Positions 3,924-51,778 of a stretch of DNA of 51,778 nucleotides are shown here, piece after piece (position 1 is the first letter of the stretch; the number at the start of each line of letters is the position of its first letter). The stretch is taken from NCBI GenBank assembly GCA_012031345.1, contig JAAUTS010000002.1, positions 1 to 51,778 on the forward strand, read 5' to 3'. Below the pieces are notes generated by a model. That model saw nothing but the letters and a program-made list of their open reading frames with translations. It did no database searches and was not told the origin of the DNA. The position numbers and the translations under genes were made by a program. Origin of the DNA: Blastochloris sp. (GTDB taxonomy: Bacteria > Verrucomicrobiota > Verrucomicrobiia > Methylacidiphilales > JAAUTS01).

Positions 3924-4769
3924 ATGACATGGAAACATGCCCAAGGCCGCTTTGAGATGGGATCGAGTCCCCTGCTCATGGGGATCGTGAATCTGACGCC
4001 TGATTCTTTTTCCGACGGCGGCGTGTTTCATCAAGTGGACAAGGCTCTGGCTCGTATTGAGGTTTTGAGAGAGGAGGGGATGGATCTGGTGGATCTGGGG
4101 GCGGAATCGACCCGACCGGGGGCCTCTCCTGTTTCGTGGAGGAAGAGTGGCGGCGACTGGAGGCGGTGTTGAAGGGAACGCTGGCGCGTTGGCCGGATCT
4201 GGTGGTATCGGTGGATACCTACAAACGGAGGTTGCCCGGCGAGCCTTGGCGGAAGGGGCGGCGATTATTAATGACGTGGGGGAGGGTTTTGGGATGAGGG
4301 TATGGCGGAGTTGTTAGCTGAATACAAGGAGGCGGGATATGTCTGCATGCACAGCCAAGGTCGGCCCCAGACCATGCAGCAAAATCCCGTATATACCGAA
4401 CATGACGTGGTGGGAGAGTTGGAACATTTTTTTAAGGAACGCATCCGGGCCTTTGCTCAAAGATGCGGCAACTTGGAGCGATTGGCGATTGATCCGGGGA
4501 TAGGGTTTGGGAAAACCTTGTCCCATAACCTAGCAATCATCGGCGGGGCTCAACGCTTTCAAGAACTGGGTCAGCCCGTGGTCTGGGGCCTGTCCCGCAA
4601 GTCCTTTGTTTCTCAGGCACTGGGAGTGGGGGCCGGGGAGCGATTGATCGGCAGTCTGGGTGCCTCGGCCCGTTTACTTCACGCGGGAGGCTCTCAAATC
4701 TGGCGGGTTCACGACGTGGCGGCGCACCAACAATTTATCCGTATGTGGTCCGCTTGCTCCTCTGGCTAG
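3924..4769 (+). CDS. folP: Dihydropteroate synthase (split by indels, probably sequencing errors)
   Basis: [36 protein letters not shown] and RVHDV across ORFs 3924-4172 and 4302-4769; ftsH-folP synteny. Confidence 0.92.
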
Positions 4770-9582: not shown

Positions 9583-9655
9583 AGCGCACAAGAAGGATTT
9601 TTACCAACTTTGTCTTTGTCACATGGTTGTGACATGGTGGGAATAGAGTTAGTCT

Positions 9656-11128
9656 GTGAGCGTGGATGCCATCAGCCCTGAAGTGTGGATCAAGGAACGA
9701 TATCGCGTGGTGCAGGCGATTGGGGCCGGAGGTTTGGGGCAGGTTTTTTACGGAATGGATGAGCAGTTGCAGCGTCCTGTGGCGATCAAACGTTTGAAGG
9801 AAGGGGGCTACATCCATGAGAAGTATCGGGATGGTTGGGTTGAGGCGCGGGCCCTGGCCAGTCTGCAGCATCCCAATGTTGTGACTCTCTTTGACTTCGG
9901 TGAAGATGAAGAAGGTGCGTATTTCATCATGGAATACATCGCGGGGGAGACCATTGAAAAACTGGCCACCATGACCCGCTTCACTGAGAAAGAGTTTGTC
10001 AACATCGCCCGGCAATGTCTGGTGGGAATTGCCGCCGCGCATGAGCTGGGTTTGGTGCATCGGGATATCAAGCCGACCAACATCATGTTGGTGCAAGGGG
10101 CGGCGGGGCAAACGCTGGTCAAGATTTTGGATTTCGGTCTGGCCAAGTTCCAAAAAGTCCCTGAGCCGCAAACGACGGATCATGACAACAACCTGCTCGG
10201 CTCGATTTATTACATGGCACCGGAGCAGTTCAGCCGGGCACCTGTGGATGGCGGGCGGACTTGTACTCGCTGGGCAATGTTTTTTATTATGCCATGACCG
10301 GGCGCATGGCTCATGCGGCGGATTCGGTGGAGCAGATTATTTTTTCACATCTCATGCACCAACCCCATTCCTGTCAACGAGTATCGTCCTGACTTGAATC
10401 CGGCCCTGGCTCTGTGGATTCATCAATTGATGAAAAAAGATCCCTTGGAACGTCCTCAAGATGCGGGGGAGGCACTGCGTTATCTGGAAGACTTGGAGAA
10501 TGCGGTGTTGACCCGGCAGGTTCAGGCCGCTCCGGCCACTCACAACCGTCAGGGGCGTTCGGGTTCGGGCGGAGGCAAGCCATGGATGCTGGGGCTGTGG
10601 ATCGGCTTGCCTGTTTTGTTAGTGGGAGCTTTGGCCGTTTGGTTTTTATCCCAGCCCAAGGCAGAGCAGCTGGAAGCTCCGGTCGCCGTGCCAATAGTTC
10701 CAGTGACGGAAACAGTTCCCCCCGAGCCTGAGCCTCCCCAGGTCATCAGTGATCCCCTGCCTCAACGTGTGGAGTCCGTGCCGGAGCCGATCCAGACGGA
10801 GCCGAAAGTGGAGGCAGCGTTCTTGGACCCCCTCGATACGGAGGCGGTCCGCGCTGCGGTGGGACAAACGAGGGAGGTGGAGGGGCGCCCGGTGCGCTTG
10901 GGGGAGAACAAGGCGGGGACGATTCTTTATTTGAATTTTTCAGAAAATTTCCGCAACACCCTGACCTTGGTTTTCTTCATCAAGGATCAAGCTCCGGGAT
11001 TTGGCCGGGAAAGTCTGGAGCCTTATCTGAACAAAAAAATCCGAATCAAGGCCGAGATCAGCGAATACAATGGTGCGCCTCAGATCAAAGTGGATTCCCT
11101 GGATCAAATGCAAATGGTGCAGGATTGA
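9656..11128 (+). CDS. Hanks-type Ser/Thr protein kinase with TM helix and C-terminal OB-fold-like domain (indels near 10255 and 10360)
   Basis: GAGGLG, VAIK, HRDIKPTN, DFG, YMAPE, then DLYSLG in a shifted frame; TM WMLGLWIGLPVLLVGALAVWF; Pro-rich linker. Confidence 0.88.
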
Positions 11129-16514: not shown

Positions 16515-17234
16515 ATGTCCGAACCTAAAGAATCCGCGCCTTTGATTTGGTTAAGAAACAAGTTTTTGACCGGCTTGTTTGTGGTCATTCCCTTGTTTGC
16601 CACCTTTTGGATTTTGAAGTTTCTCTACAAGGTAATGAGCGGCTTTGCCGAGCGCTTGGTCAAGACTTTGGTGGAGGTGTATCGGCCCTTGATTCCTAAC
16701 TTTTTGATTGTTGACGGCACGATCCCGTTCGCCGCGCTTTTTATCACCCTGGCCACGGTGATCGCGGTTGGGTTGTTAGCAACCAATGTTTTTGGCCGGA
16801 AGATTGTCGAGTGGATTGAGTCGGCCCTGCATCGTGTGCCCTTGGTCAATTTGATTTATCCTGTGGCCAAGCAGGTGGTGGAATCCCTGAAGGAACTGGG
16901 GAATGCTCAGACGGAGGAAAGCCGCAAGCCGGTGGTTTTTTTGCGGTATCCGGGGACTTTGGGATATTTTATCGGGTTTCAGACCGGAAGATTCAAAAGC
17001 GCGGAGGGGAAAAGAATGGTGACGGTGTTCCTGCCCACGGCGCCGAATCCGATCACAGGTTTTGTGTTGGCCTTTGAGGAGACGGATGTGGTCAACAGCG
17101 ACATCAAGTATGAGGATGCCTGGAAGATGATTGTTTCCGGGGGACTGGTAACGCCCAAGAACATCAGTTTCGGAACCACAACCACAGCAGCAGTCCCAGT
17201 CCCAATACCAGTCGATACCAAGCAAACGGGATGA
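16515..17234 (+). CDS. DUF502 family membrane protein
   Basis: FLTGLFVVIPL, RVPLVNLIY..AKQ, VFLPTAPNPITGF, IVSGG. Confidence 0.88.
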   Translation: MSEPKESAPLIWLRNKFLTGLFVVIPLFATFWILKFLYKVMSGFAERLVKTLVEVYRPLIPNFLIVDGTIPFAALFITLATVIAVGLLATNVFGRKIVEWIESALHRVPLVNLIYPVAKQVVESLKELGNAQTEESRKPVVFLRYPGTLGYFIGFQTGRFKSAEGKRMVTVFLPTAPNPITGFVLAFEETDVVNSDIKYEDAWKMIVSGGLVTPKNISFGTTTTAAVPVPIPVDTKQTG

Positions 17235-17960
17235 AGCTGTGGGTTCGTATAAAACCGAGCAGCCATTTGACCACGATGAAGGCTACGACCATGGAAACCA
17301 AGAAGCCCAGGGCGAAGTGTTGCCATTCCTCCTTGGGCAGATTGCCGTGGTCATGGATTTCTGAGAGCAGGCCATAGACGCTGGCGGCCAGCAAGGTGGG
17401 GATGCCGAGGAGAAAGGAAAACTCCGTGGCCATCATGCGGGAGCTGCCCATCATCATGGCGGCGATGATGGTGGTGGCGGATCGGGAACTGCCGGGAAAA
17501 ACAGCGGCCAGCACCTGAGCGAGGCCGATCACAATGGCCATGGGCCAGGTGATGTGGTCGCGGGGTTGATGTTTTTTCAAATGATGCTCGGCGGCGAAGA
17601 TTAGCAGGGCGCCGATCAAGACGGCCCAGGCTACGGGTGCGGGATCTTCCGGCAGTTGAAGACCGAGGAATTTACAGACCAAGGCAAGGATGACGGTCAG
17701 GAAAAAGCGGCGGCCAGTTTCAGGATATAATCGAGTTGTTCCGGTTGCCGCCAGTGTAGTGCGAGATGCACCAGTTTTTCACGATAGATCAAAACCACGG
17801 CCAGGACCGCTCCCGACTGGATGCCGATGTTAAAAAACTCCGAACGCAGATTTCCCATGAAGTATTCGGCTAAGAGAAGGTGGCCAGTGGAGGAAATGGG
17901 AAGAAACTCGGTAATTCCCTCGATGACACCCAAAAGAACGGTTTGCAACCAATCTGACAT
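17164..17960 (-). CDS. uppP: Undecaprenyl-diphosphate phosphatase (indel near 17700)
   Basis: GVIEGITEFLPISSTGH, PGSSRSATTI, EFSFLLGIP, FAWYR. Confidence 0.93.
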
Positions 17961-18100
17961 AAAGAAAGAGCATCGGGATTTGTCTGCGCTTGCCAAGAGC
18001 AGAGTTGGTGAGGGCCTGTCACTTTTTTGTATCGCTGCGGTGATTTGGTCAGAGATGGGAACTTGGGCAGTTCATGGATGCGCTGGGTGATATTTGACTT

Positions 18101-22705: not shown

Positions 22706-22817
22706 GGTGGTGGGATTTGGTTTGAATGAATATAGAGGAGTGAGGGAATGAGACAAGTTTACAGAGATCGTCGCATTTTCGTGCTGACTTCCAGCGGTGG
22801 TGTTTTAGGTTCCGGAC

Positions 22818-23398
22818 ATGATTTTAAATGACAGGCAGATTACGAAACTGGCCAAAGGTGGAATGATCAAGCCCTTTGTGCCGAGTTTGTTGAGGCAGTC
22901 GGAGGGGCGGGCGGTGTTGTCTTATGGATTGAGCAGCTATGGGTATGATCTGCGGCTTTCGGGCAAGGAATTCAAAATATTCCGTCACATTCCCGGCACG
23001 GTGGTGGATCCGAAGGCGTTCAGTCCGAAGAATCTGGAATTGGCGGAACGGCATGAGGATGAGAAGGGGATTTATTTTATTCTGCCCGGACGAAGTTACG
23101 GACTGGGAGTGGCGGTGGAGCAGTTGCATCTGCCGGATAATGTCAGTGCGATTTGTGTGGGAAAAGCACCTATGCGCGATGCGGGATCATCGCCAACGTG
23201 ACGCCGGCAGAGGCGGGCTGGCTGGGGCATCTGACGCTGGAATTTTCCAACAGCAGCGCGGCGGATTGTCGGGTTTATGCGGGCGAGGGTGTGGTGCAGA
23301 TGATTTTCTTCCAAGGTGAAACCTGCGCGACAAGTTATCGCGCCCGGTCCGGGAAATATCAAAAGCAGACGCATCGGATCACGTTGCCCAAGGTATAG
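22818..23398 (+). CDS. dcd: dCTP deaminase (indel near 23165)
   Basis: [45 protein letters not shown]. Confidence 0.93.
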
Positions 23399-23450: not shown

Positions 23451-23898
23451 TCAGAGGAGGGGGAGGAGTTTCCATTGGGGAGGCTGGGATGCGGACAGGG
23501 TGAGGATGGCGCAGGAGGGTGGGGCGCCTTTGTTGGCTTTGCTGATGCAGCCGGGATTCAGAAAGCGTGTGTTGCGCAGGGTTTCGTCGCGTGGAACATG
23601 GGTGTGGCCGTGGAGGAGGAAGGGAGTGTTAGGCGGGGCTTGACGGGGAGGGATGTGAACGAGGTGGAAGAGATGTCCCGCTCTGCTCAGGCGCAGTTCC
23701 AAAGGCCAGGACTCATCGGAATCACAGTTTCCGCGCACGATGTGGGCGGTTGTCCAAGAAGAGGAGGGAGGTGAGGGTGGACGGGTCACAGACATCGCCC
23801 AAATGCCAGAACTCATCGCAGAAACCTAACTTGGTCAACACCAGATCCGGGAGCCGATCGTGGGTGTCGGAGAGAACCCCGATGCGATGAGGCTGCAT
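23451..23898 (-). CDS. YfcE-like metallophosphoesterase (indel near 23750)
   Basis: IGVLSDTH and HLGDV read from the DNA; then VRGNCD, HGHTHVP, LNPG. Confidence 0.82.
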
Positions 23899-25282: not shown

Positions 25283-25334
25283 GCTGATAAGCTGAAAACT
25301 TTAAGAATTTTTTAACCCACAAACACATTTATAT

Positions 25335-25807
25335 ATGGCACGCAGACGTCAAGCAACCAAACGCACGATCCCGAATGATCCGGTCTTCGAAACGCCCATG
25401 GTGACCGCTCTGGTCAACACCGTGATGCGCGATGGCAAAAAGAACACCGCCCGCCGGATTGTTTACTCGGCCATCGACAAGGTGAACGAAGGCAAGAAGG
25501 AGGGGAATCCTCTGGAAATCCTCGAAAAAGCCATGGAAACGTGAAGCCTCGTCTTGAGGTTAAGTCCCGCCGGGTCGGCGGTGCCACTTATCAGGTTCCG
25601 ATGGAAGTGACTCCTGAGCGTCAATTGGCTCTGGCCGTCCGTTGGTTGGTGGGTTATGCCTCCGGTCGCAAAGGCACACCAATGCCCAAGGCGCTGGCCT
25701 TTGAAATCAAAGAAGCGGCGGCGGGGCAGGGTAATGCCATCAAGAAGCGCGACGACGTGCATCGTATGGCCCAAGCCAACAAGGCCTTTGCTCATTTGCG
25801 CTGGTAA
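25335..25807 (+). CDS. rpsG: 30S ribosomal protein S7 (indel near 25540)
   Basis: [36 protein letters not shown]. Confidence 0.97.
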
Positions 25808-31080: not shown

Positions 31081-31083
31081 TTT

Positions 31084-31833
31084 ATGGCCCGGCCTGCCAA
31101 AATTGCGGGCTTGGTGAGTATTTTCGGCTTCAGCCTGGTGCTGAGCCTAGGGGGGCAAGACTCCCCGAAACGTTCTTTACAAGTTGGACAGAAAGAAAGC
31201 AATCGGGAGCAGCCGGGCAGTCAGGAGAGCCGGAGCAACGAGGAGCGTCTGCAGGAGCTGGAAGAAAGTCTGGCTCTGGCGCGGACGGAGTCGGAATACT
31301 TCCATGAGAAGTGGGTCGCGCTCAAACTCGAACACGAAGCGCTGGGTCTGGAAGCCTTGACCGCCAATGAACGGGCCATGCAGGAAAAGCTGGTGCGTTT
31401 GGTGGGAGAGGTTTACCGGAGCGAGAAAAGCAGGCTCAAGCTGCAGGCGGCGACAGAAAAACTGATCGAGGCCGGGCAGAGTCTGCAACAGGCGGGTCCC
31501 TTGGACCGCGCTCAGCGTCGGGCGGAATACGAAGTCGCTCTGCGTGATGTCAGGCAAGCCATGAGGGGTGAAACCAAAGTGGCCATCGCGAACGATTTGC
31601 AGTCCGGGATCATCCGCAGTGTGGATGAGTCCGGTCTGGCCATTGTGAATTTTGGACGGGCCCAGAAGGCCCGGATCGGAATGCCCTTCCGCATCTTGCG
31701 AGACAGCAAGGTGGTGGGTCGGGGCAAACTGGTTGAAATCAGGGAGTATGCAAGTGCTCTGCTGATTGAAGATGTGATTGAAAAAGAACAGGTGAAGGTG
31801 GGTGACCGCCTTCTCCTGGAAACAGTGAAGTAA
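31084..31833 (+). CDS. Hypothetical exported coiled-coil protein with C-terminal beta domain, inserted in the S10 operon
   Basis: Intact 249-aa ORF 3 nt after the rpsS stop and 4 nt before rplV; hydrophobic N-terminus, heptad region, C-terminal VNFG..GMPFRILRD..VKVGDR. Confidence 0.8.
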   Translation: MARPAKIAGLVSIFGFSLVLSLGGQDSPKRSLQVGQKESNREQPGSQESRSNEERLQELEESLALARTESEYFHEKWVALKLEHEALGLEALTANERAMQEKLVRLVGEVYRSEKSRLKLQAATEKLIEAGQSLQQAGPLDRAQRRAEYEVALRDVRQAMRGETKVAIANDLQSGIIRSVDESGLAIVNFGRAQKARIGMPFRILRDSKVVGRGKLVEIREYASALLIEDVIEKEQVKVGDRLLLETVK

Positions 31834-32263: not shown

Positions 32264-32269
32264 CATCGT

Positions 32270-32910
32270 ATGGGTCAGAAAGTTCATCCCTTTGGGTTTC
32301 GTATCGCCGTCAAACGCAATTGGCGTTCGATGTGGTATGCCAACAAAAAAGATTTCCCGGTCTATCTGCATGAGGACTACGAGATCCGTCAGTTCTGCAG
32401 AAGCGTTTGAATGGTGCGGCCATTTCCAAGATCACCATCGAACGTGCCGCCAACCGTGTGCGTGTGAACATCTTCACCGCCCGTCCCGGTCTGGTCATCG
32501 GACGTAAAGCCTCCGAGCTGGACAAGTTGAAGGGGGAAATCAACGACCTGTTGCCGGGCCGTGATGTCCTGGTGGACGTGAAAGAAGTCAAAAACCCTGA
32601 AATCGACGCGCAGCTCGTGGCGGAAAACATCGCCGTGCAGTTGGAGCGCCGTATTTCCTTCCGTCGCGCCATGAAGAAAGCGGTGCAGACCGCCATGGAC
32701 TTCGGTGCCTTAGGGATCAAGGTGCGTTGCTCCGGTCGTTTGCAGAACGCGGAAATCGCCCGTTCCGAGCCTTATCGTGAGGGGAAAGTGCCGCTGCACA
32801 CCCTGCGCGCCAACATTGAATACGGATTTACTGAAGCCAACACCATCGCCGGAAAAATCGGGGTGAAAGTGTGGGTTTGTTTGAAGGAGGACGCGGCTCA
32901 GGCTGCGTAA
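32270..32910 (+). CDS. rpsC: 30S ribosomal protein S3 (indel near 32395)
   Basis: [11 protein letters not shown] from the DNA; [26 protein letters not shown]. Confidence 0.97.
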
Positions 32911-32918
32911 GTTGAACT

Positions 32919-33343
32919 ATGCCATTACTTCCAAAACGCGTTAAATATCGCAAAACACAGCGTCGCAGCCGCGCGCACGACGCCACACGGGGAACGACGT
33001 TGGCCTTCGGTTCCTTTGGTCTGCAGACTCTGGAGCGTCACTGGTTGACGAACATCCAGATTGAAGCGGCCCGTGTCGCCCTGACCCGCAACATGAAGCG
33101 CAAAGGGAAACTCTGGATCCGTGTGTTCCCTGACAAATCGGTCACGGCCCGTCCCCCGGAAACCCGAATGGGTAAAGGAAAAGGCGCGCCGGACAAGTGG
33201 GTTGCGGTCATTCGCCCCGGTAACATTTTATTGAATTGGACGGTCTGCCCGAATCGACCGCCCGTGAATCCCTGCGCCTGGCGGCTTCCAAACTGCCCAT
33301 GGGCACCCGGTTCATCAGTCGTGACAGGAAATTGAGCGTATGA
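32919..33343 (+). CDS. rplP: 50S ribosomal protein L16 (indel near 33228)
   Basis: [23 protein letters not shown]; C-terminus LRLAASKLP in a shifted frame. Confidence 0.97.
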
Positions 33344-42296: not shown

Positions 42297-42400
42297 GCTG
42301 GTCTTGGTCCGATAAATATTTTAACGAACAAAACACTCCGTTGGTCCTGGCTCGCCTGCTGCGGGCTCAGGGTAACCCGGAATAAGGAAAAACACACACC

Positions 42401-43416
42401 ATGGCCCTCAAATTAGCACGGTTCGAATTGCCGAACCGCCTCGTGAAGGACGAAGACTCCGCCACACCCACCTACGCCAAGTTCATTGCCGAACCTTTTG
42501 AACAGGGTTATGGACACACACTCGGCAACTCCCTGCGCCGCGTGTTGCTCAGCTCTCTGGAAGGAGCGGCCATCACCTCGGTCAAAATCGAGGGAGCCTT
42601 GCATGAATTCGCCACGCTTCCCGGCGTGGTTCAGGACGTGACCGACATCGTTTTGAATCTCAAGAAGATCAAATTCAAAATGGCCAATCGCGATCCCCGC
42701 ATCCTGTTCCTGAACGTGAACAAGGAAGGCGACGTCACGGCGGGCGACATCACCCTGGAAACGGGAGTGGAAGTGGTCAACCCCGAGCAGATCATTTGCA
42801 CCCTCGACAAAAAAATGAAGTTCGAGGCGGAATTGGAAATCAAAGTCGGACGTGGTTACACCAGTGCCGATGAAAACAAGCCCGAGGCCCAGACCATCGG
42901 TGTGATCCCGATTGATTCCCTGTTTTCCCCGGTGAAAAGGTGAAATACAACGTGGAAGCCACCCGTGTGGGTCAGCGCACGGATTACGACAAGCTGGTTT
43001 TGGAAGTGTGGACGGATGGCCGTCTGAACCCTGACGAATCCTTGCTGCAGGCTTCGGCCATCTTGCGCCATCACCTCGATATCTTTGTCAACTTTGACAA
43101 GGAACCGATTGAGTTTGAAGAGCCCAAGCAGGCCACGGGCACCCAGGACAGTGCCCTCAAGAAACTGCTTAACATGAGCGTCAACGAGATCGAGTTGTCG
43201 GTTCGCGCCGCCAACTGTCTGAACAACGCCAACATCACCACGGTGGGTCAACTGGCCCTCAAGTCCGAGGCGGAAATGCTCAAGTATCGGAACTTCGGCA
43301 AAAAGTCCCTGAACGAAATCAAGGACAAGCTGACCCAGCTTGGTCTTTCCCTGGGAATGCATTTCGAACCCGGCCTGGTCGAGATCCCGGTCGATGTCAA
43401 TGCGGAGAACAAATAA
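42401..43416 (+). CDS. rpoA: RNA polymerase alpha subunit (indel near 42938)
   Basis: EPFEQGYGHTLGNSLRRVLLSS, HEF, TRVGQRTDYDKL, ELSVRAANCL, NFGKKSLNEI. Confidence 0.98.
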
Positions 43417-43890: not shown

Positions 43891-43922
43891 TCTGAATCCC
43901 GGATCCGAGCCCCAGGCTAAGC

Positions 43923-43960
43923 AAAGGCAGCGACCCCACAAAGGTCGCTGCCTTTTTGTT
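43923..43960 (+). terminator. Rho-independent terminator ending the ribosomal superoperon
   Basis: Perfect 13-bp stem AAAGGCAGCGACC/GGTCGCTGCCTTT followed by TTGTT. Confidence 0.92.
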
Positions 43961-44040
43961 GGGCAAGAGGTTTGGACAGGAAGGACAAGATGTAGACTGG
44001 GGAAGAAGGTGCTGATTTTGGGTGGGAAGTGTGCGTTTCT

Positions 44041-44556
44041 TTATGGGCGATAGCCACGACCCTTTTGCCATGTTTTGATCCGATCCGAACACAGCACTTT
44101 TGGCAGATAGCGGTCTTGAGCGAGGAGGGACTCGAGTTTTTCCGCAGCGTCTTTGGGTTTGAGTAAACCTTTTTCGATCAGACGATCGAAGATCCAGAGT
44201 GTGCCGTGCACTTCTACGCACCGGGCTTCGGCCAACAGGCGCAGTTCCTTGTCCCCGGTCAGTAGCAAGGCCCTAAGTGCCACCGCCAGCAGGTACGCCC
44301 CGGCATCCTCTATTTCCAAATCAGGATGGTCGAACAGGCATTGCGCCGACTCCGCCAGAATTTGTGGCGTGGTCTCATGGATGAACAGTCGTCTGGAAGC
44401 GGCGAAGGCCAGCACCCCCGAATGCCCTCCTTTCTGAATCTGGGCGAGGATCAAGTCGGTGGTGTGGGTCTCGATTCCCAGATCAAACCAGATGCCCAAA
44501 GTCCCGGAAAGTTCCAGGTCAATGAGGATGTTGGCGTCCTGAACGGCGATCTTCAT
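44041..44556 (-). CDS. PIN-domain protein (DUF3368/VapC-like putative RNase toxin)
   Basis: VQDANILIDL, EIED, LLTGDKELR, VHGTLW; ATGA overlap with the upstream gene. Confidence 0.85.
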   Translation of the reverse strand: MKIAVQDANILIDLELSGTLGIWFDLGIETHTTDLILAQIQKGGHSGVLAFAASRRLFIHETTPQILAESAQCLFDHPDLEIEDAGAYLLAVALRALLLTGDKELRLLAEARCVEVHGTLWIFDRLIEKGLLKPKDAAEKLESLLAQDRYLPKVLCSDRIKTWQKGRGYRP

Positions 44557-45632
44557 GAGAGCAGATCGTCGCCTTTCCGGATTTCAACCAGCGTCACGTT
44601 GAGGAGTGAGGCGGCCTTGGAACGGGTGACCTGCTGTTCCGCCACCGCCCGGAAGACTAGTTGGCGGAAGCGTTGGGAGCGTTCGCAGCCTCGGTAGTCG
44701 TCATCGCCCGGCTCCTTGGCCTTCCAGTTCTCCGCCTTGTAACGGTCCCAGAAGCGTCGGGAAAGCGCGGGGGTGATCAACTCCTGTTGTTTGGCTCGCA
44801 TCATGAGGGAGCCCAGGGAAATGCCCCAGGTGACTTTGATGCTGATCAGTTCTTTCAAGGAAAGGGTTTCCCGGAACCCGCCGAAAGCCTGCCGACAGGA
44901 CTCCGCAGGCAGGATGAAGGACCCGGCGAAGCGGGCGACGATCTTTTCCTCGTCCAGACCGGGAGCAAGGCGGTCCTTGAGCAGGACATGGCCAAGCTCG
45001 TGGATTGTGGTGTGGCGCTTGCGGGTCAGGCATTGGTCGTTGAGGTGTTTGCCGATGACCACGATGGGGGTCGAGCCGATCCAGCCGGAAAATCCGTCGA
45101 ACTCCGGTGGCGCGTCCACCTCACAAACTTTGATGCCGTTCAGTTCCAGCATTTCCATCAGGTTGCCGATGGGTTGGCGTCCCAGGTTCCAGGCATCACG
45201 CAGCTTTTCTGCGGCGGTCTCCGCGTCTTGAGGCGACTCGATTCGCAGCTTACCAAGCGGGTTGTGGAAGGGGTGCTTGAGGCCAAGGATCGATTCGATG
45301 GAGAGATAGCGCTCGAAGTAATCCTGAGCCTTGATTTCAAGGGTCTGGAACTGTTTGACGCCTAATGTGTCGTGTTTGGCGCGGTATTTCACACCCTGGA
45401 TGGCTGGCTCTGTCGGCCGGAAGAAGAAACCTGGAGGTTGGTTCAGGGCTTCCGAGAGGGCGATGAGGAGGGTGCCGTCGGGCATCATCTCGCCGCGTTC
45501 GTATTTGGCCAAGGCGTTGTGGGAGACGGCACCACCGATGCGGTCGGAGAGTTCGCGCAGGGAAAACCCCGCCATCTGCCGCGCCTGCCGCAGCCGTGTT
45601 CCGAAAAGTGAGGTATATTTGGTTTCGGTCAT
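44553..45632 (-). CDS. XRE-family HTH fused to ImmA/IrrE (DUF955) zinc metallopeptidase
   Basis: RLRQARQMAGFSLRELS..LAKYERG HTH; FDGFS; TIHELGH (HExxH); E..ARFAGSFILP. Confidence 0.92.
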   Translation of the reverse strand: MTETKYTSLFGTRLRQARQMAGFSLRELSDRIGGAVSHNALAKYERGEMMPDGTLLIALSEALNQPPGFFFRPTEPAIQGVKYRAKHDTLGVKQFQTLEIKAQDYFERYLSIESILGLKHPFHNPLGKLRIESPQDAETAAEKLRDAWNLGRQPIGNLMEMLELNGIKVCEVDAPPEFDGFSGWIGSTPIVVIGKHLNDQCLTRKRHTTIHELGHVLLKDRLAPGLDEEKIVARFAGSFILPAESCRQAFGGFRETLSLKELISIKVTWGISLGSLMMRAKQQELITPALSRRFWDRYKAENWKAKEPGDDDYRGCERSQRFRQLVFRAVAEQQVTRSKAASLLNVTLVEIRKGDDLLS

Positions 45633-45674
45633 GTTTACAAAATAGTTGACAAATTAAATATTGTAAACCATTAT
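45630..45674. promoter_or_regulatory. Overlapping divergent promoters with three GTT(T/G)ACAA boxes
   Basis: + strand TTGACA(45646-45651)-17-CATTAT(45669-45674); - strand TTTACA-17-TATTTT-6 nt-ATG; boxes at 45633-45640, 45645-45652 and inverted at 45661-45668. Confidence 0.72.
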
Positions 45675-45793
45675 GTGCTTATGAAACGAGGTTGCTAATT
45701 TACTGAAGGGGTGGCCCAGCGTGCTGTTATGGGCGACGGTAATGACCAAGCAACTTCGCTACACGGAACGGAACGCATAGAACAAATATCATC

Positions 45794-46754
45794 ATGAAGC
45801 TTACTGATACTCAGCTAAACGTTTTCATATCTAAGGTTCTTCATCTTGGGAAAGGAAAACGGAAGGAATTCCTTACTCAAGTAGATTTCCTTATTCAAAG
45901 TCTGGATAAGAAAATCAAGGAAGACGCATCCTTCAAGGTAAAGGGCTTCAAAAAAACCGGCTCAATCATGAAAGGCACGGTTCTCAAGCCCAGTGGTGAC
46001 TTTGGAGTTGATGCGGATATTGCGGTTTTCTTAGATGTTTCAGAATCTGAAAAAAATGACATCGAAAATCTCCACCAAATCATTCGCAATCTTCTTGTGG
46101 CAGTTTATCCAACTAAGAAGCCACAGGATTTCCGGGTTCAACCTAGGACGCTAGGCATTCACTTTCACACGTCGGGCCTAGATGTTGATCTTGTCCCAGT
46201 AATTCCAATCCCCAAGCAAGAGGGTTACGGATGGCAGCCATCGTCTCAGCGTGGACAGCCCGTTAAAACCTCAATCCAAGGCCAATTGGATTTCATTAAA
46301 AACCGGAGAGATGCGGACCCGAGATTTAAATCCATCGTGCGATTGTTGAAAAAATGGCGGAATGAGAATGAACTCGAGCGTTTCCGCTCTTTCACCATTG
46401 AACTGCTTGTCGCACACCTTTACGACCAAAACGGTGCAGCAACTTCCCTCGAAGACGGGCTCCAGCGGTTCTTCCTTTTTCGTTGCTCAAACTGGCCTTA
46501 CCAAGCCCATCACTTTTCCTGAGCTTGGCAAAGGAGTGAGCTTTCCGAGTGACCCAGTTGTGATTCTCGACCCCGTAAACAAGGACAACAATGTCGCGTC
46601 CCGTCTGACTGATGATGAAAGAAAAGAAATCGTGGGAGGTGCAGAAATGGCATGGTCCACGATAGAGGCAGCGAGCTGGAAGGGTGGGAAAGGCGACACA
46701 TTAGATCTTTGGAAGAAAGTCATGGGACGTTCCTTCACAATCGACCAAGAATAA
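45794..46754 (+). CDS. cdnC: CBASS CD-NTase, CdnC-like (+1 indel near 46478)
   Basis: TGS..KGT.L, DADIAVF, GLDVDLVP, SIVRLLKKW, RSFTIEL, ILDPVN.DNNVA, W.KVMGRSF; about 319 aa after repair; adjacent HORMA and TRIP13. Confidence 0.9.
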
Positions 46755-46756
46755 AT

Positions 46757-47272
46757 ATGAGTTCAACAGGCACACGCACCACCACCTACACAGTCGCTGA
46801 CATCCGCAAAGTCGTCGAAAACTTTGCCGCCGATTTCTCCATGATGGCACAAGCCACGGGATTGCGCACACGTGAAAGCGTCGCATCCGTGGTTTCCGAC
46901 CTGAACATTTTCGCAGAATATGGTTACCTAGTTTCGGTGACGCTGTTCTTGCTCGACAAGGACGGCAACAAACTTCGTGTCGCCTACTACAAGGTCGCGG
47001 ATTCCGCAGCGGGCTGGCAATCGGATGCGCCCGGCAACAACCTCTGGCCCAGAACCGAAGGAGGCTCTTTGTGGGTGCTCGGGACATTGACGGACGCGTG
47101 GTGGAACAAAACAGGTGCCGAAAAGGAAGCATTTATTAAAGCGAGGGGGTTGAATTTCCCATGGTCCAAAACTGATAAGGACACATCGCTCAGTGGGTTG
47201 ACTTCAAGTGCTGGCCAAAAATACGCCAGCAATGGATATGGTTGGGAGCGGACTAATTACAGTCGATTATAA
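46757..47272 (+). CDS. cap7: Bacterial HORMA-domain protein (Cap7-like)
   Basis: Thr-rich N-terminus TGTRTTTYTVADIRKV, YGYL..V.L.L, C-terminal YASNGYGWERTNY; lies between cyclase and AAA+ ATPase. Confidence 0.87.
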   Translation: MSSTGTRTTTYTVADIRKVVENFAADFSMMAQATGLRTRESVASVVSDLNIFAEYGYLVSVTLFLLDKDGNKLRVAYYKVADSAAGWQSDAPGNNLWPRTEGGSLWVLGTLTDAWWNKTGAEKEAFIKARGLNFPWSKTDKDTSLSGLTSSAGQKYASNGYGWERTNYSRL

Positions 47273-47274
47273 TT

Positions 47275-48189
47275 ATGAAAGAAGGAACCGCCGCGTTGTT
47301 TGAACTGGAAACCTCCCTGCCCGATGCCAGGCTTAAGACCCAAGCGGAAAGGCTGGTTGGATTCAAGGCCCGATACGACCGCATTCACCAGGACTTGCGC
47401 CTCCTAATCGACAAGGAAGGTTTGGAAAATTGGAGCAAGAAGCATTACCACAACCGCCTTCCATTGCTGGATTCGTTGTTCGACCGATACCCACTCGTTG
47501 TATTTCACGGAGATGTTGGAACGGGTAAAACAGCAACCGCTGAGGCAGTAACAAACGCACTCGCCGGGGAGCTTGGCAAGGGAGCGCTGCTCTTCAAACT
47601 GAGCACGCGTGTGCGAGGAAGCGGCAACGTCGGAGAAATGAGTTCCCTCATCAACCAAGCCTTCGATATTGTTGGCGAGGAAGCTGGGAAAGCAAAACTG
47701 TCCTTTCTTATCATTGATGAGGCTGACTCACTCGCAGCCAACCGCTCCGGTAGCCAAAGCCATCATGAGGATAAGGTTGCTGTGAACACGCTTATTCAAA
47801 AGATTGATGACGTTAGGAGATTCAACGGCCGTGTGCTGGTCATTCTTTGTACGAACCGATACGAGGCGCTCGATCCAGCAATTCTCCGACGTGCTGCATA
47901 CGTCGAAGAATTTCGACGACCTGATGACGGTGAACGGCGCGAGATTCTGAATCTGGATTGTGAAGGGCTGGGACTGACAGCATCCGCCATTGAAGAATTG
48001 GTACAGCTCACGGGAACGCACGGTCCCCACAAGCTTGGCTACACGTTTTCTGATATTCGCACGAGGCTACTTCCAGAGGCACTGGTACACGCTTACCCGA
48101 CGCGCAAAATTAACCATACTGATTTGATCGACGCAATTTCACGAGTTGCGCCATCACCGACAATCTTTACGACGGAAGATCGCGTATGA
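47275..48189 (+). CDS. cap6: TRIP13/Pch2-like AAA+ ATPase (Cap6-like)
   Basis: GDVGTGKT, RVRGSG.VGEMS, IIDEADSLA, HHEDKVAVNTLIQKID, LDPAILRRA. Confidence 0.92.
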   Translation: MKEGTAALFELETSLPDARLKTQAERLVGFKARYDRIHQDLRLLIDKEGLENWSKKHYHNRLPLLDSLFDRYPLVVFHGDVGTGKTATAEAVTNALAGELGKGALLFKLSTRVRGSGNVGEMSSLINQAFDIVGEEAGKAKLSFLIIDEADSLAANRSGSQSHHEDKVAVNTLIQKIDDVRRFNGRVLVILCTNRYEALDPAILRRAAYVEEFRRPDDGERREILNLDCEGLGLTASAIEELVQLTGTHGPHKLGYTFSDIRTRLLPEALVHAYPTRKINHTDLIDAISRVAPSPTIFTTEDRV

Positions 48190-49350
48190 ATCTTCGTGGT
48201 CGCCGAATTCACATCGTTGGGAGTGCTGATCCCACGGCTGATGAAGAGAAACTGGGATATGTCCATTCGCTTGTATCTGAACTGACAAACGCACTTGTGG
48301 CGGAGGGTGCTAATTTCGTTATACCGTTTGGTAAGGAGCCGTTTCTTACAGAACGGGAAGATGGGCTCTCTATCATCTTTGATTGGACCGTAGCTGAAGC
48401 GGTATCCAAAGCCCAAATCAAAGGAATTGCTAAGCCTTCTGGCCCCAATGGTTACCTGATTGCAACCTTGGCAACAAGTAAGACAGATTTCCAAATTCCA
48501 GCAGTTCGTCGCGTTATTTATGAACAACTTAGGGACACTAATTCCATCGGCATCGAATTCCTTGAACCTGGCTGGAGCGCGGGCGCCATTAGCCGTTCAC
48601 GGCTTGCCCAGCTCGGGGACATTCTGATTGCGATTAGTGGGGTCAAGGGGTTGAGCAACTTGCAATCGAATATTCCTCAAGGGTAAGCCGGTCATTCCGC
48701 TCGATATTAACGTGGGTTCTTCTTCGCGCGATGGATCTGGAGGGGCACCAAGACTCTTTGATCGAGCTCGCGCCAAGCCTGGAGACTTCTTTTCAGTAGC
48801 AGCGTCTGCATCCGCAGCTGATTTACTAGACCGAACCCAAACTCGAAATGGAGAAGTCAATGTCATGGTAGTCGTGGCTGCCATCCTTAACCTGATCCAT
48901 GCCCTCGTTCCCCCACGAGTTTTCTACGTCAGACTCCTGAATGACACGCTTCCCGAATATACATCTGTAGAGGAGTTTTTTAGAAAAACCGCCGACCCGC
49001 TTGTTCGAGAATTGGGCTATGAGCCGCTCCAAATGGGGCTTGGAAAGAACGAGTTTGTCTGGATGAATCAAGCCATTTTCGACTCCATGCACCACAGTAG
49101 TGTAGCACTTGTAGATCTGACAGGACTGAGGCCCAATTGCTTTATGGAACTGGGATATTCGCTCGGCAACAAGCAGCGAGTGATTGTATGTGCTCGTGAC
49201 GACACGCGAATTCCATTTGATGCGTTTGCGCTGGAGGCTTTTCAGTGGAAAGAATCTGAAGACCTAGGTAAGAGATTGGACAAGTTCCGCACACATTGGG
49301 AAAGAAATATCAACATGCCAACGCTTGTTCGACCAAAGGAGGCGAAGTGA
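48186..49350 (+). CDS. CBASS effector: Cap17-like (SLOG-like) N-terminal domain plus nucleoside 2-deoxyribosyltransferase-like C-terminal domain (two -1 indels near 48640 and 48681)
   Basis: IHIVGS, EP..IIFDWT, repaired IAISGGQGVE..GKPVIPLD..VG..DG.G; C-terminal VDLTGLRPNCFMELGYSLG..VIVCAR...IPFD; frame arithmetic fits one ~388-aa ORF. Confidence 0.75.
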
Positions 49351-49893
49351 AAGCTGAGTGCTATTTTTTCAGTAGATATTGAATCCGCAGGTCCGATACC
49401 CCGGCAAAATACAGCATGCTTTTCTCTAGGCGCGTGTGTGGTGGGTGATCCTACGGTATCGTTTTACGCCGAACTGAAACCCATCACTAAAGAGTTCGTG
49501 GCAGAAGCTCTTAAGATATCTGGGTTTAACCTTGAACGTCTTGAGCGCGAGGGTCAGGCGCCTGAAAATGTAATGAAGGACTTCCGCCGATGGGTTGAAA
49601 CAGTCACCGAGGAGTGCAAACCAGTCTTTGTCGGTTTCAATGGCTGCTTTGACTGGCAGTTTGTGAACTGGTACTGTGAATCGTTTGCCGGGGGCAATCC
49701 ATTTGGGTTTGGTGGAATAGACATCAAGTCGTATTTTATGGGCTTTAGTGGTGAGACGTGGGCGAGATCGACATCAAGCCAACTACCAGAGGAATTTAAG
49801 CCTGACATTCCACAAACCCACAATGCGCTTGATGACGCACGTGCCCAAGCATCGATCTTTCATAAATTATTTACTAAGCGGCGTTCAAGATAG
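49347..49893 (+). CDS. cap18: DEDDh 3'-5' exonuclease, Cap18-like (several +1 indels near the 5' end)
   Basis: Repaired start [52 protein letters not shown]; GTGA overlap with the effector stop. Confidence 0.82.
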
Positions 49894-50133
49894 ATAGCCG
49901 TAAATGTCAATTCGTTGTGTTGCGCGATCCAAGAACGGCGCCCAGCGGGTCGGTCCTCGAATTTAAGGGTCTAACGGCGTTATTGCCTGAGCAAGAGGTA
50001 ACACCCTTTCTGAGTGTGGGTCTCTTTCAACTGGCTTGGCCTGAGGTGACGGGGAGGTTTAGGAGTGAGGGATCATGGGCCATCAGCCTTTTACGTATCA
50101 ATCTTGCCCTCTTCCGTAATTTCCTGCTACTTT

Positions 50134-50322
50134 ATGAATATGACAACCGGGTATTCCAATTACACCAGAGCCGATGCACGCAAAGAAATTGGAGAAATGC
50201 GCAAATTTACCCAAGAGCTGGTGAAATCACCCGGCAAAGCGCAAAAGCTTTTGATCGAGGCGGGTATTCTTCGCAAATCGGGCAGGGGTTTGGCCAAAAA
50301 ATATCAATCGGCCAGCACTTGA
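50134..50322 (+). CDS. Small basic protein, putative antitoxin/partner of the downstream gene
   Basis: About 60 aa with A.KLLIEAGIL..SG..LAKKY; stop is 4 nt before the next ATG; alternative start 50140. Confidence 0.55.
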   Translation: MNMTTGYSNYTRADARKEIGEMRKFTQELVKSPGKAQKLLIEAGILRKSGRGLAKKYQSAST

Positions 50323-50326
50323 GCCT

Positions 50327-50959
50327 ATGCGTCACTCGGCTTGGATATTGGCATACCATGGATGTGATCGGTCTATAGGTGATCAAATCCTCCGTGGTGA
50401 CTCTGAAGTCAAGCCGAGCAACAACGAGTATGACTGGCTTGGGAAAGGTTCTTATTTTTGGGAAAACTCCTACAGCCGCGCCCTCAAGTGGGCTCAATTT
50501 CTAAAAGAGCACCCTTCCTACACTCATAAAGCGATCAAAGATCCGTTTGTGGTGGGCGCCATCATTGATCCCGGAAATTGCCTCGATCTGACAGAAGCCG
50601 AATGTCTCGATATCCTGAAGGAAGCTTACGCGCAATATGTTGATGTGATGCGTTTGGTGGCCAAATACTCGGGTGAGCCGACGGTCCTTCCGAAAAATGA
50701 GCCTGGTTTCAAAGGGGACGAGGATCTAGTCAAACGCAAGTTGGATTGCGCTGTCATCAACTGGCTTCATAAAACGAGAGAAGACCGGAAGCTCAAAAGC
50801 AAGGGACTACAACCCTTTGATACCGTGCGTGGCGCCTTTTCAGAAGGTGATTCGCTTTTTGAGAATTCGAAAATTGAATCCAGAACCCATATTCAATGGT
50901 CGGTGTTGGACCCTGCACGAAGTGTGGTGGCTTATTTCAGACCTCGAATCAGAAATTGA
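50327..50959 (+). CDS. ADP-ribosyltransferase-fold-like protein (putative toxin)
   Basis: AYHGC, KPS.N.YDWLG.G.YFWE, RALKWA, CLDLT, THIQ: H-Y-Q arrangement resembling H-Y-x ARTs. Confidence 0.6.
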   Translation: MRHSAWILAYHGCDRSIGDQILRGDSEVKPSNNEYDWLGKGSYFWENSYSRALKWAQFLKEHPSYTHKAIKDPFVVGAIIDPGNCLDLTEAECLDILKEAYAQYVDVMRLVAKYSGEPTVLPKNEPGFKGDEDLVKRKLDCAVINWLHKTREDRKLKSKGLQPFDTVRGAFSEGDSLFENSKIESRTHIQWSVLDPARSVVAYFRPRIRN

Positions 50960-50998
50960 TCTTTTACGGACATATGATCTTCGAGATGGGAACGCGTG

Positions 50999-51778
50999 AT
51001 GCTGGGTGTCACGACAACCGCCGATCTGTCTCTGGTGCGCTCGCGAGGAGAGGAATGGCGAACTCTCGCTTTCATGCCGGCGGCCGCGCTGTGGCGCGAG
51101 TTCCTCGACGCTGACGTGCTGCGCCTCTGGGACGGCTGGCTGAATCGCCCGCTGGTGGAAGATATCCGTTCAGCGGGACGCGAGATCTGGGTGATGAGCG
51201 GCAATCTGGGCTCCTACCTTCCGACGGGCGTCTTCGATCCGGCGCGAGTCGCGCTCTATCGCGAGCTTGGAGTCGACGGCGTTCTGGTGAACGAAGTCTC
51301 GCGATTTCGGCGGGTATTGGCGAGAGGTGGGTACCCGCGCCTGATCGCGCACCGCGGCCTCTGCCCTGGCTTGTGCCGAGAATTCGCTTCCCGCTTCGCG
51401 GCCGCGAAGGCCCTTGGTGCGGACGAGATCGAGCTGGACGTTCGAGGAACCGCCGACCGGCACCTCGTGATCTGTCACGACAGGGATCTCGCCCGCATTG
51501 CGGGAATCCCCGGCAGCATAGACGCTCTTGGCGTTGAGCAGCTTGCCGCAGCGAGGCTGCGTGGGGACATGGAAAGCGTCGGCCTCTGCACCCTTGAGGA
51601 GGTTTTTCGCCTGTTGGGTCAGAGCATCGGGTACAACATCCACATCAAGGAGGCCGGCGACGACGGATGGATCGTTGCTCGGACCATCCGGACCATTCGG
51701 GAGTACGCGTTGCAGCGTATCGCGTACATAGCGGGAGATGCGGAAGTGCTCGATTACGCGATGAGGATGGATCCGGAG
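50999..51778 (+). CDS. Glycerophosphodiester phosphodiesterase-like ORF, 5'-truncated and running off the window end (not in the ORF track)
   Basis: Manual translation is open from 50999 to the end: REIWVM..LGVDGVLVNE (end of a first GDPD barrel), then LIAHRG..ALGADEIELDV..TAD.HLVICHD, LEEVF, NIHIKE. Confidence 0.78.
   Translation, partial: MLGVTTTADLSLVRSRGEEWRTLAFMPAAALWREFLDADVLRLWDGWLNRPLVEDIRSAGREIWVMSGNLGSYLPTGVFDPARVALYRELGVDGVLVNEVSRFRRVLARGGYPRLIAHRGLCPGLCREFASRFAAAKALGADEIELDVRGTADRHLVICHDRDLARIAGIPGSIDALGVEQLAAARLRGDMESVGLCTLEEVFRLLGQSIGYNIHIKEAGDDGWIVARTIRTIREYALQRIAYIAGDAEVLDYAMRMDPE

Follow-up and report, generated by a model that had tools for sequence, protein, structure and literature searches.

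In the 51,778-nucleotide stretch of contig JAAUTS010000002.1 that was analysed here (assembly GCA_012031345.1, Blastochloris sp.; hereafter the window), the gene between cap6 and cap18 is, judging by its sequence and neighbours, the effector of a type III cyclic oligonucleotide-based anti-phage signalling system (CBASS) operon. Read through two single-base deletions, it encodes a protein of approximately 388 residues, in which a predicted SLOG-type sensor domain precedes a candidate N-glycosidase domain. The architecture is that of a standard, catalogued CBASS effector, and the window gene is a new member of a widespread known family. Its catalytic domain lies on the border between TIR domains, associated with NAD+ cleavage, and nucleoside 2-deoxyribosyltransferase (NDT) domains, associated with base excision from nucleotides. 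The reading as a whole (a type III CBASS effector of a catalogued family, with a proposed N-glycosidase mechanism and with frameshifts that are most likely errors of assembly) is held with good confidence.

The five genes of the operon lie on the + strand in the type III CBASS order of cyclase, HORMA, TRIP13, effector and exonuclease (Table 1). This order was assigned with PADLOC models, with which Pfam was concordant, and it places the gene in the effector slot proposed for it in the preliminary description of the window. The cyclase model PDLC00808 (325 positions) matched the two open reading frames (ORFs) of cdnC in order, at positions 3-235 (E 2.4e-70) and 235-324 (E 2.6e-24). With the intact cyclase protein of a homologous locus (L001) as tblastn query, the two cdnC frames were found to join at 46476-46480, and alignment of the DNA with L001 and a second locus (L002) showed that the T run 46476..46480 has one base more in the window. 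Both cap7 and cap6 are in single frames, with 94% and 93% identity to L001, respectively. The cap7 product matched bacHORMA_1 with E 2.7e-33 (profile positions 1-168 of 169) and the PADLOC HORMA model with E 1.8e-36; the cap6 product matched PDLC00914 with E 4e-116 (positions 5-298 of 302). The cap18 ORF is without its N-terminus and matched PDLC00753 at positions 33-180 of 184 (E 4.1e-53). DNA alignment with seven homologous loci showed that cap18 starts at a GTG overlapping the effector stop, in an ATGA/GTGA junction, and that one extra T is present in the run 49364..49369. A cap18 without a frameshift, suggested by a single-frame tblastn match, was ruled out by this overlapping start and the extra T.

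The effector was called as two + strand ORFs in different frames, 48186..48686 (166 aa) and 48712..49350 (212 aa). Three-frame translation showed that the frame changes twice within 45 bases, such that …LIAISG is followed by 14 conserved residues and then by GKPVIPLDINVG…, and the read-through protein agrees residue for residue with intact 388-aa homologues such as P0001. Alignment of the DNA with four intact homologous loci (L001-L004) resolved the two changes as 1-bp deletions 40 bases apart. At site 1, GGGG is present in the window and GGGGG in three of the four loci. At site 2, the window has AAGGG vs AAAGGG in two of the four, and a false stop (TAA, 48684..48686) follows directly. The preliminary description had proposed a single gene of about 388 codons interrupted by the loss of one G from each of two G runs. 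The single gene and the two single-base deletions were upheld; the second missing base need not be a G: it may be an A, which would restore the Lys of the homologues. The effector copy, the only one in the source genome, is otherwise free of in-frame stops and large deletions and has lost none of the conserved residues, and when it is read through the family-invariant residues are all present.

Both halves of the effector are spanned, in order, by a single PADLOC CBASS model of 388 positions, PDLC00733 ('Effector TIR'). Residues 2-159 of the first ORF matched positions 5-159 (E 8.8e-28), and residues 9-207 of the second matched positions 181-382 (E 3.6e-48); the intact homologue P0001 matched positions 5-382 with E 1.3e-86. 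The N-domain Pfam family, PF18178 (Cap17-like_N/TPALS), was formerly named 'TIR- and PNP-associating SLOG'. When the C-terminal ORF was used as query, 241 proteins of 372-2000 aa matched at E <= 0.001. All of the matches listed (120 of the 241) were 386-389 aa in length and contained PF18178, the best being 88% identical. An all-against-all HMMER search gave matches at E <= 0.001 to 400 representatives of 50%-identity clusters. Because one catalogued model covers both halves, the family name already records the association and intact copies number in the hundreds, the fusion is not the uncharted domain swap for which it had been taken. Searches of NCBIfam at E <= 1 gave no match for the effector or P0001. 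In the ESM Atlas, with P0082 as query, scores of at least 0.9 came solely from the family's own clusters, and TIR-family clusters scored 0.83-0.86, which we treat as leads. A literature search found no study testing the TPALS-TIR/NDT effector family, although supplementary tables, such as those of the Cap17 paper, may list the architecture.

An effector relative is encoded in 101 stretches from species-representative genomes, of which 79 distinct loci were kept. The carriers belong to many bacterial phyla and a few archaea and include cultured strains, among them Plasticicumulans lactativorans DSM 25287 (L056), Zoogloea sp. LCSB751 (L063), Duganella flavida FT135W (L071) and Hyphococcus luteus (L078). 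Partner genes in these loci were sought with hidden Markov models built from the proteins that the window itself encodes. Divergent partners could escape these models, and several of the loci are truncated where a contig ends; the following counts should be read accordingly. The full set of cyclase, HORMA, TRIP13 and Cap18 surrounds the effector, in the order seen in the window, in 47 of the 79 loci, thereby supplying the intact homologues beside CdnC, HORMA and TRIP13 that had been sought. A cyclase was found in 65 loci and Cap18 in 68; ten loci have cyclase and Cap18 with HORMA or TRIP13 undetected, and in three none of the four partners was found. The Cap18-type DEDDh exonuclease adjoins the TPALS effector in all 68 of its loci, 13 of which are without a detected HORMA or TRIP13. 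According to a 2025-26 preprint, an exonuclease of the Cap18 type occurs in only ~4% of CBASS operons. The link of Cap18 may thus be with the TPALS sensor and not with the type of CBASS.

The sensor domain spans residues ~1-240 and the catalytic domain residues ~243-385. The Cap17-like character ascribed to the N-half was confirmed by PF18178, which matched the first ORF with 93.5 bits against a gathering cut-off of 26.6 (E 1.5e-26, positions 1-152 of 232) and P0001 with 156.3 bits over positions 1-232. The N-domain is predicted to have the SLOG (Rossmannoid) fold of the ThsA SLOG domain. In an AlphaFold model of P0001 (pLDDT 91.6, 65 sequences), its best structural match was the SLOG domain of BcThsA (Z 17.1, 185 residues aligned, root-mean-square deviation (rmsd) 3.3), and TM1055, the MoCo carrier protein and DprA gave Z 12.3-13.8 over model residues ~2-244.

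For the C-terminal domain, the absence of a PNP domain was as previously described: PF01048 (PNP_UDP_1) matched neither the second ORF nor any of 65 family members, and the PADLOC 'PN-superfamily' effector model PDLC00759 matched the N-half alone (residues 2-240). The assignment of this domain to an N-glycosidase class has to contend with two negative results. The second ORF gave no Pfam match to TIR (PF13676, PF10137 and PF01582; E <= 0.01) or to NDT, and in whole-genome scans PF10137 (E <= 0.001) and PF05014 matched nothing in the source genome, and PF13676 missed the C-half in the window. As there is no significant Pfam match, the catalytic assignment rests on the fold, weak profile matches and motif conservation. 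Separately, the only PF13676 match in the source genome is a TIR_2 protein on another contig (C36:9068-9355, E 1.2e-9, in genome G000).

Full-length Foldseek searches were muddled by the presence of two domains, and the second ORF of the window gene was folded alone (AlphaFold, pLDDT 92.6, 84 sequences). The model predicts a five-stranded flavodoxin-like alpha/beta domain of the TIR/NDT superfold. The leading Foldseek matches were NDT and MilB (E 2e-05 to 1e-04), followed by SARM1, DNPH1, the SPARTA TIR and TIR-STING (E 1e-04 to 6e-04). VIA-align likewise gave its highest scores to NDT-type enzymes, MilB (Z 12.9, 138 residues aligned) and BpNDT (Z 12.0), with the TIR domains of IL-1RAcPb (Z 11.6), SARM1 (Z 11.5) and SfSTING (Z 11.4) close behind; the SfSTING TIR aligned over 116 residues with rmsd 2.8. 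On these models the scores tie NDT with TIR, and the fold cannot separate the two.

Sequence profiles lean further towards NDT. Pfam Nuc_deoxyrib_tr (PF05014) was weakly matched by 36 of the 65 family members (best E 4.2e-05). Among the same members, TIR matches comprised three to PF10137 (CAP12-PCTIR_TIR; best E 0.013) and one to TIR_2 (E 0.0015). Comparisons of the family profile with PDB sequences were sub-significant for Cap12 (E 0.16), Rcl (E 0.45) and PycTIR (E 0.66). For profile-profile comparison with hhalign, domains were sampled from same-phylum genomes (12 of PF10137, 23 of PF05014 and 20 of PF13676). The family matched the PF05014 profile with a probability of 94.4% (E 9.3e-08, 79 columns, glutamates aligned), PF10137 with 30.7% and TIR_2 with 18.6%; in control comparisons, PF10137 gave 73.5% with TIR_2 and 0.8% with NDT. 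Six of the sampled PF05014 domains, compared as a subset, account for the NDT signal (97.4%, E 1e-11, 86 columns), and the other 17 gave 0.9%. Among the six, four are fusions to a PfkB kinase, with PF05014 matches of E 9e-15 to 8e-20, and PADLOC recognises none of the six as a defence protein. Nearest to the catalytic domain by profile are four proteins of 418-452 aa with a C-terminal NDT domain (L100-L103), which are not in PADLOC; a PfkB-type kinase domain precedes the NDT domain in L100-L102, and none was detected in L103.

The residues around the putative catalytic glutamate point the other way. The family motif reads D-L-T-x2-R-P-N-C-F-x-E-L-G-Y-A-L-G, with a nearly invariant Glu, and an invariant F-D is found further on. 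In 65 sequences (P0001 numbering), E322 and R316 are conserved in at least 90%, D311, D346 and W355 are invariant and N318 is conserved. In alignments the Glu falls on the glutamates of Cap12, PycTIR and Rcl, and on that of NDT. In the sub-significant alignment with Cap12, R-P-N-C-F-x-E-L-G and P-F-D of the family lie opposite R-D-N-V-V-F-E-F-G and P-T-D, and PycTIR aligns likewise. At six, four and three positions before the Glu, the family has R, N and C, Cap12 and PycTIR have R, N and V, and NDT has D, G and T. The NDT alignment accordingly reads D-x-G-T-x2-E where the family reads R-P-N-C-F-x-E, and the acidic residue of NDT is replaced by Arg. In NDT enzymes, the aspartate six residues before the Glu contacts the sugar.

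A true NDT/DNPH1/MilB-type enzyme, hydrolysing nucleoside monophosphates or deoxynucleotides rather than NAD+, is on this evidence a possible but doubtful alternative. It is favoured by the hhalign and PF05014 results, by the leading place of NDT and MilB in both structural searches, by one public source that names a family member 'nucleoside 2-deoxyribosyltransferase' and by a precedent in defence, the NDT-like retron Ec86 effector, as outlined in bioRxiv 10.1101/2023.08.16.553469. It is opposed by the failure of the 17 remaining PF05014 domains to match, by the tie of fold scores with TIR, by R, N and C before the Glu, which fit Cap12 and PycTIR and not NDT, and by the curated resources, which label the domain TIR. 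We prefer to read the domain as a probable Glu-dependent N-glycosidase domain intermediate between NDT and the TIR families of PF10137 type; on the whole it is somewhat closer to NDT, yet it has a Cap12-like catalytic loop. The NDT-like C-half of the preliminary description therefore stands as far as profiles and the top fold match are concerned, and is qualified by the fold tie and the R-x-N-x3-E-x-G motif. The NDT call is defensible, and the database label 'TIR' denotes the same domain.

By analogy with TIR-STING and ThsA, both signal-activated effectors, and with Cap17, a scheme of activation may be drawn up. Phage infection would activate CdnC through the HORMA protein, and the cyclic oligonucleotide made by CdnC would bind the SLOG domain. 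Binding would then switch on the C-terminal domain, probably by oligomerisation; ThsA and TIR-STING are activated by forming filaments or oligomers. The active domain would cleave the N-glycosidic bond of an essential, abundant phosphorylated metabolite and so stop the infected cell (abortive infection). NAD+ is the leading candidate substrate, at roughly even confidence; a nucleoside monophosphate (NMP), deoxynucleoside monophosphate (dNMP) or nucleoside triphosphate (NTP) is proposed more tentatively, and some other metabolite seems rather improbable. We entertain, as a speculative suggestion, that the 'TIR' label hides an NDT/DNPH1-type nucleotide N-glycosidase, in which the R316-type Arg would hold the 5'-phosphate. 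If so, killing would proceed by removal of the bases of NMPs, dNMPs or NTPs and not by consumption of NAD+, and the family would add a third CBASS N-glycosidase chemistry to the TIR NADases and the Cap17 ATP nucleosidase. This would also suggest that other effector annotations reading 'TIR' hide NDT-type enzymes. As the family is common, its substrate would reveal the metabolite depleted by a large branch of CBASS and would test the 'TIR' label.

The frameshifts of the effector most likely arose in the assembly, as homopolymer errors, and are not biological. The source genome is a metagenome-assembled genome of 236 contigs that is 86.8% complete. Within the window, rpsG, rpsC, rplP and rpoA each contain one frame change and are single ORFs in two same-genus genomes (tblastn); the rpoA break lies at a G run, with a G missing at 42939-42940. 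Pfam matches are also split or partial in folP, a protein kinase, uppP, dcd, a metallophosphoesterase and possibly recA. As essential genes cannot be broken, the assembly must carry homopolymer indel errors, and such errors are the simplest explanation for the effector breaks too. The indels of the operon, comprising insertions in cdnC and cap18 and the two deletions in the effector, are all at or beside homopolymers.

Several observations count against assembly error and leave room for a truly decaying operon, in which real mutations would have shifted the frames of cdnC, the effector and cap18 and the CBASS would no longer work. The operon has four frameshifts in 4.1 kb vs four in 19.3 kb of the ribosomal cluster (binomial p = 0.036; Poisson p = 0.011), a comparison in which the background count is a lower bound. 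Richness in homopolymers was considered as the cause of this excess and rejected, the operon having fewer runs per kb than its flanks. The sole public run found contains 5% of the sampled words; over the operon its contigs represent a ~90% relative and leave 48595-48858, with both effector breaks, uncovered, so that they favour neither reading. Furthermore, the operon is a low-GC island (0.49 vs 0.55), and it is absent beside rplQ in the two same-genus genomes, so that it is dispensable. Set against these points, the same kind of frameshift is present in essential single-copy genes (rpoA, rpsG, rpsC and rplP) on the same contig. Compared with their counterparts in the intact L001, the operon proteins show 85-94% identity, with all conserved residues present and without a nonsense codon or deletion. 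In a metagenome bin, moreover, an island that varies between strains may be less well covered and have a poorer consensus. On balance decay is unlikely, and assembly error is retained as the explanation of the breaks. With many single-base frameshifts in the housekeeping genes of this contig, gene calls from assembly GCA_012031345.1 need frameshift-aware handling.

That the two ORFs are genuinely separate genes, one encoding a SLOG sensor and the other an independent catalytic protein, is highly improbable and already contradicted by the frame analysis: the assembly calls two ORFs, and the effector appears as two ORF matches in four of the 79 loci (L013, L047, L057 and L068), but the SLOG domain itself is interrupted by the break (the first ORF contains PF18178 positions 1-152 of 232, and the remainder is in other frames), a third frame is needed to read the 14 conserved residues that separate the ORFs, and every one of the 120 homologues listed is a single protein.

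Divergent from cdnC lies a gene for a fused HTH_3 and Peptidase_M78 protein (HTH_3 E 8.1e-13, Peptidase_M78 E 1.8e-06 in Pfam), to which PADLOC gave weak capP and capH matches and a strong RmrA match. Relatives of HTH_3/M78 are present in 26 of the 79 effector loci, mostly upstream of the cyclase and as one or two ORFs. The window protein is probably the regulator of the operon, of the CapH/CapP type and in the form of one fused protein. It is followed on the minus strand by a DUF3368/PIN-like ORF, the two together occupying 44041..45632. The region 43900..51778, downstream of rplQ, has no counterpart beside rplQ in the two same-genus genomes; it includes the regulator, the CBASS operon and ORFs at 49917..50959, one of them with a weak PD-T4-9_A match, it is lower in GC (0.49 vs 0.55), and it looks like a variable defence island. 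Elsewhere in the window, an ORF of 250 aa without a Pfam match (31081..31830) lies between rpsS and rplV in the S10 operon and is kept at the same place in the two same-genus genomes, with 66-67% identity.

Table 1. Coordinates in the window of the CBASS operon, its break sites and other features.
Feature	Coordinates	Strand	Basis
cdnC (CD-NTase), in two frames	45794..46754	+	PADLOC Cyclase PDLC00808
cap7 (bacterial HORMA), intact	46757..47272	+	Pfam bacHORMA_1; PADLOC HORMA
cap6 (TRIP13-like AAA+ ATPase), intact	47275..48189	+	PADLOC TRIP13 PDLC00914
Effector, ~388 aa if read through	48186..49350	+	PF18178; PDLC00733; homologues; AlphaFold
Frameshift site 1, G run one base short	48639..48642	+	DNA alignment vs L001-L004
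Frameshift site 2, one base missing in AAGGG	48679..48683	+	Gap vs L001-L004
cap18 (DEDDh 3'-5' exonuclease)	49347..49893	+	PADLOC Effector Exonuclease PDLC00753
Fused HTH_3 + Peptidase_M78 protein, 359 aa	44553..45632	-	
rpsG, frameshift region	25305..25804		Comparison with two same-genus genomes
rpsC, frameshift region	32264..32907		Comparison with two same-genus genomes
rplP, frameshift region	32919..33340		Comparison with two same-genus genomes
rpoA, frameshift region	42386..43413		Comparison with two same-genus genomes
folP, split or partial match	4275..4766		Pfam
Protein kinase, split or partial match	9653..10294		Pfam
uppP, split or partial match	17167..18071		Pfam
dcd, split or partial match	22809..23198		Pfam
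Metallophosphoesterase, split or partial match	23454..23825		Pfam

Among known systems, the closest in operon type is that of Cap17, the TPALS-PNP ATP nucleosidase of the E. coli KTE188/upec-117 type III CBASS, as outlined in bioRxiv 10.1101/2023.01.24.525353 and 10.1101/2022.01.04.474952. Going by these outlines, Cap17 has in common with the window system the PF18178 sensor, the operon type and the presence of Cap18, and the signal-activated N-glycosidic cleavage resembles the logic proposed for the window effector. The C-terminal domain of Cap17 is PNP_UDP_1, whereas that of the window effector is not; in upec-117, as described there, cap17 is divergent from the core genes, whereas the window effector lies inside the operon.

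The TIR proteins Cap12 (TIR-STING) and PycTIR (PF10137) have a fold close to that predicted for the catalytic domain (SfSTING Z 11.4) and share R-x-N-x3-E-x-G and P-x-D with it over a 60-residue alignment. Their role as signal-activated effectors is the one proposed here, and databases label the window family TIR; the matches, however, are below significance (E 0.16 and 0.66; hhalign 30.7%), and their sensor is a STING or cyclic-nucleotide-binding domain instead of SLOG. NDT, DNPH1 (Rcl) and MilB (PF05014) provide the best profile-profile match and the top fold match, with the Glu aligned in x-E-L-G-Y-A. Pfam matches to them are weak only (best E 4.2e-05), the family has Arg in place of the NDT Asp, and the known enzymes are housekeeping or antibiotic-pathway proteins that are not signal-gated.

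In ThsA, the SIR2-SLOG protein of Thoeris, SLOG responds to a nucleotide signal and controls a domain that destroys a metabolite, as proposed for the window effector. The catalytic SIR2 domain of ThsA is N-terminal and its signal comes from a TIR protein, whereas catalysis in the window effector would be C-terminal and the signal that of a CD-NTase. The retron Ec86 effector, compared by its preprint description only, is an NDT-like anti-phage precedent; as described, its control lies with msDNA and reverse transcriptase and it is without SLOG, in contrast to the window effector, with its SLOG domain and proposed cyclic oligonucleotide signal.

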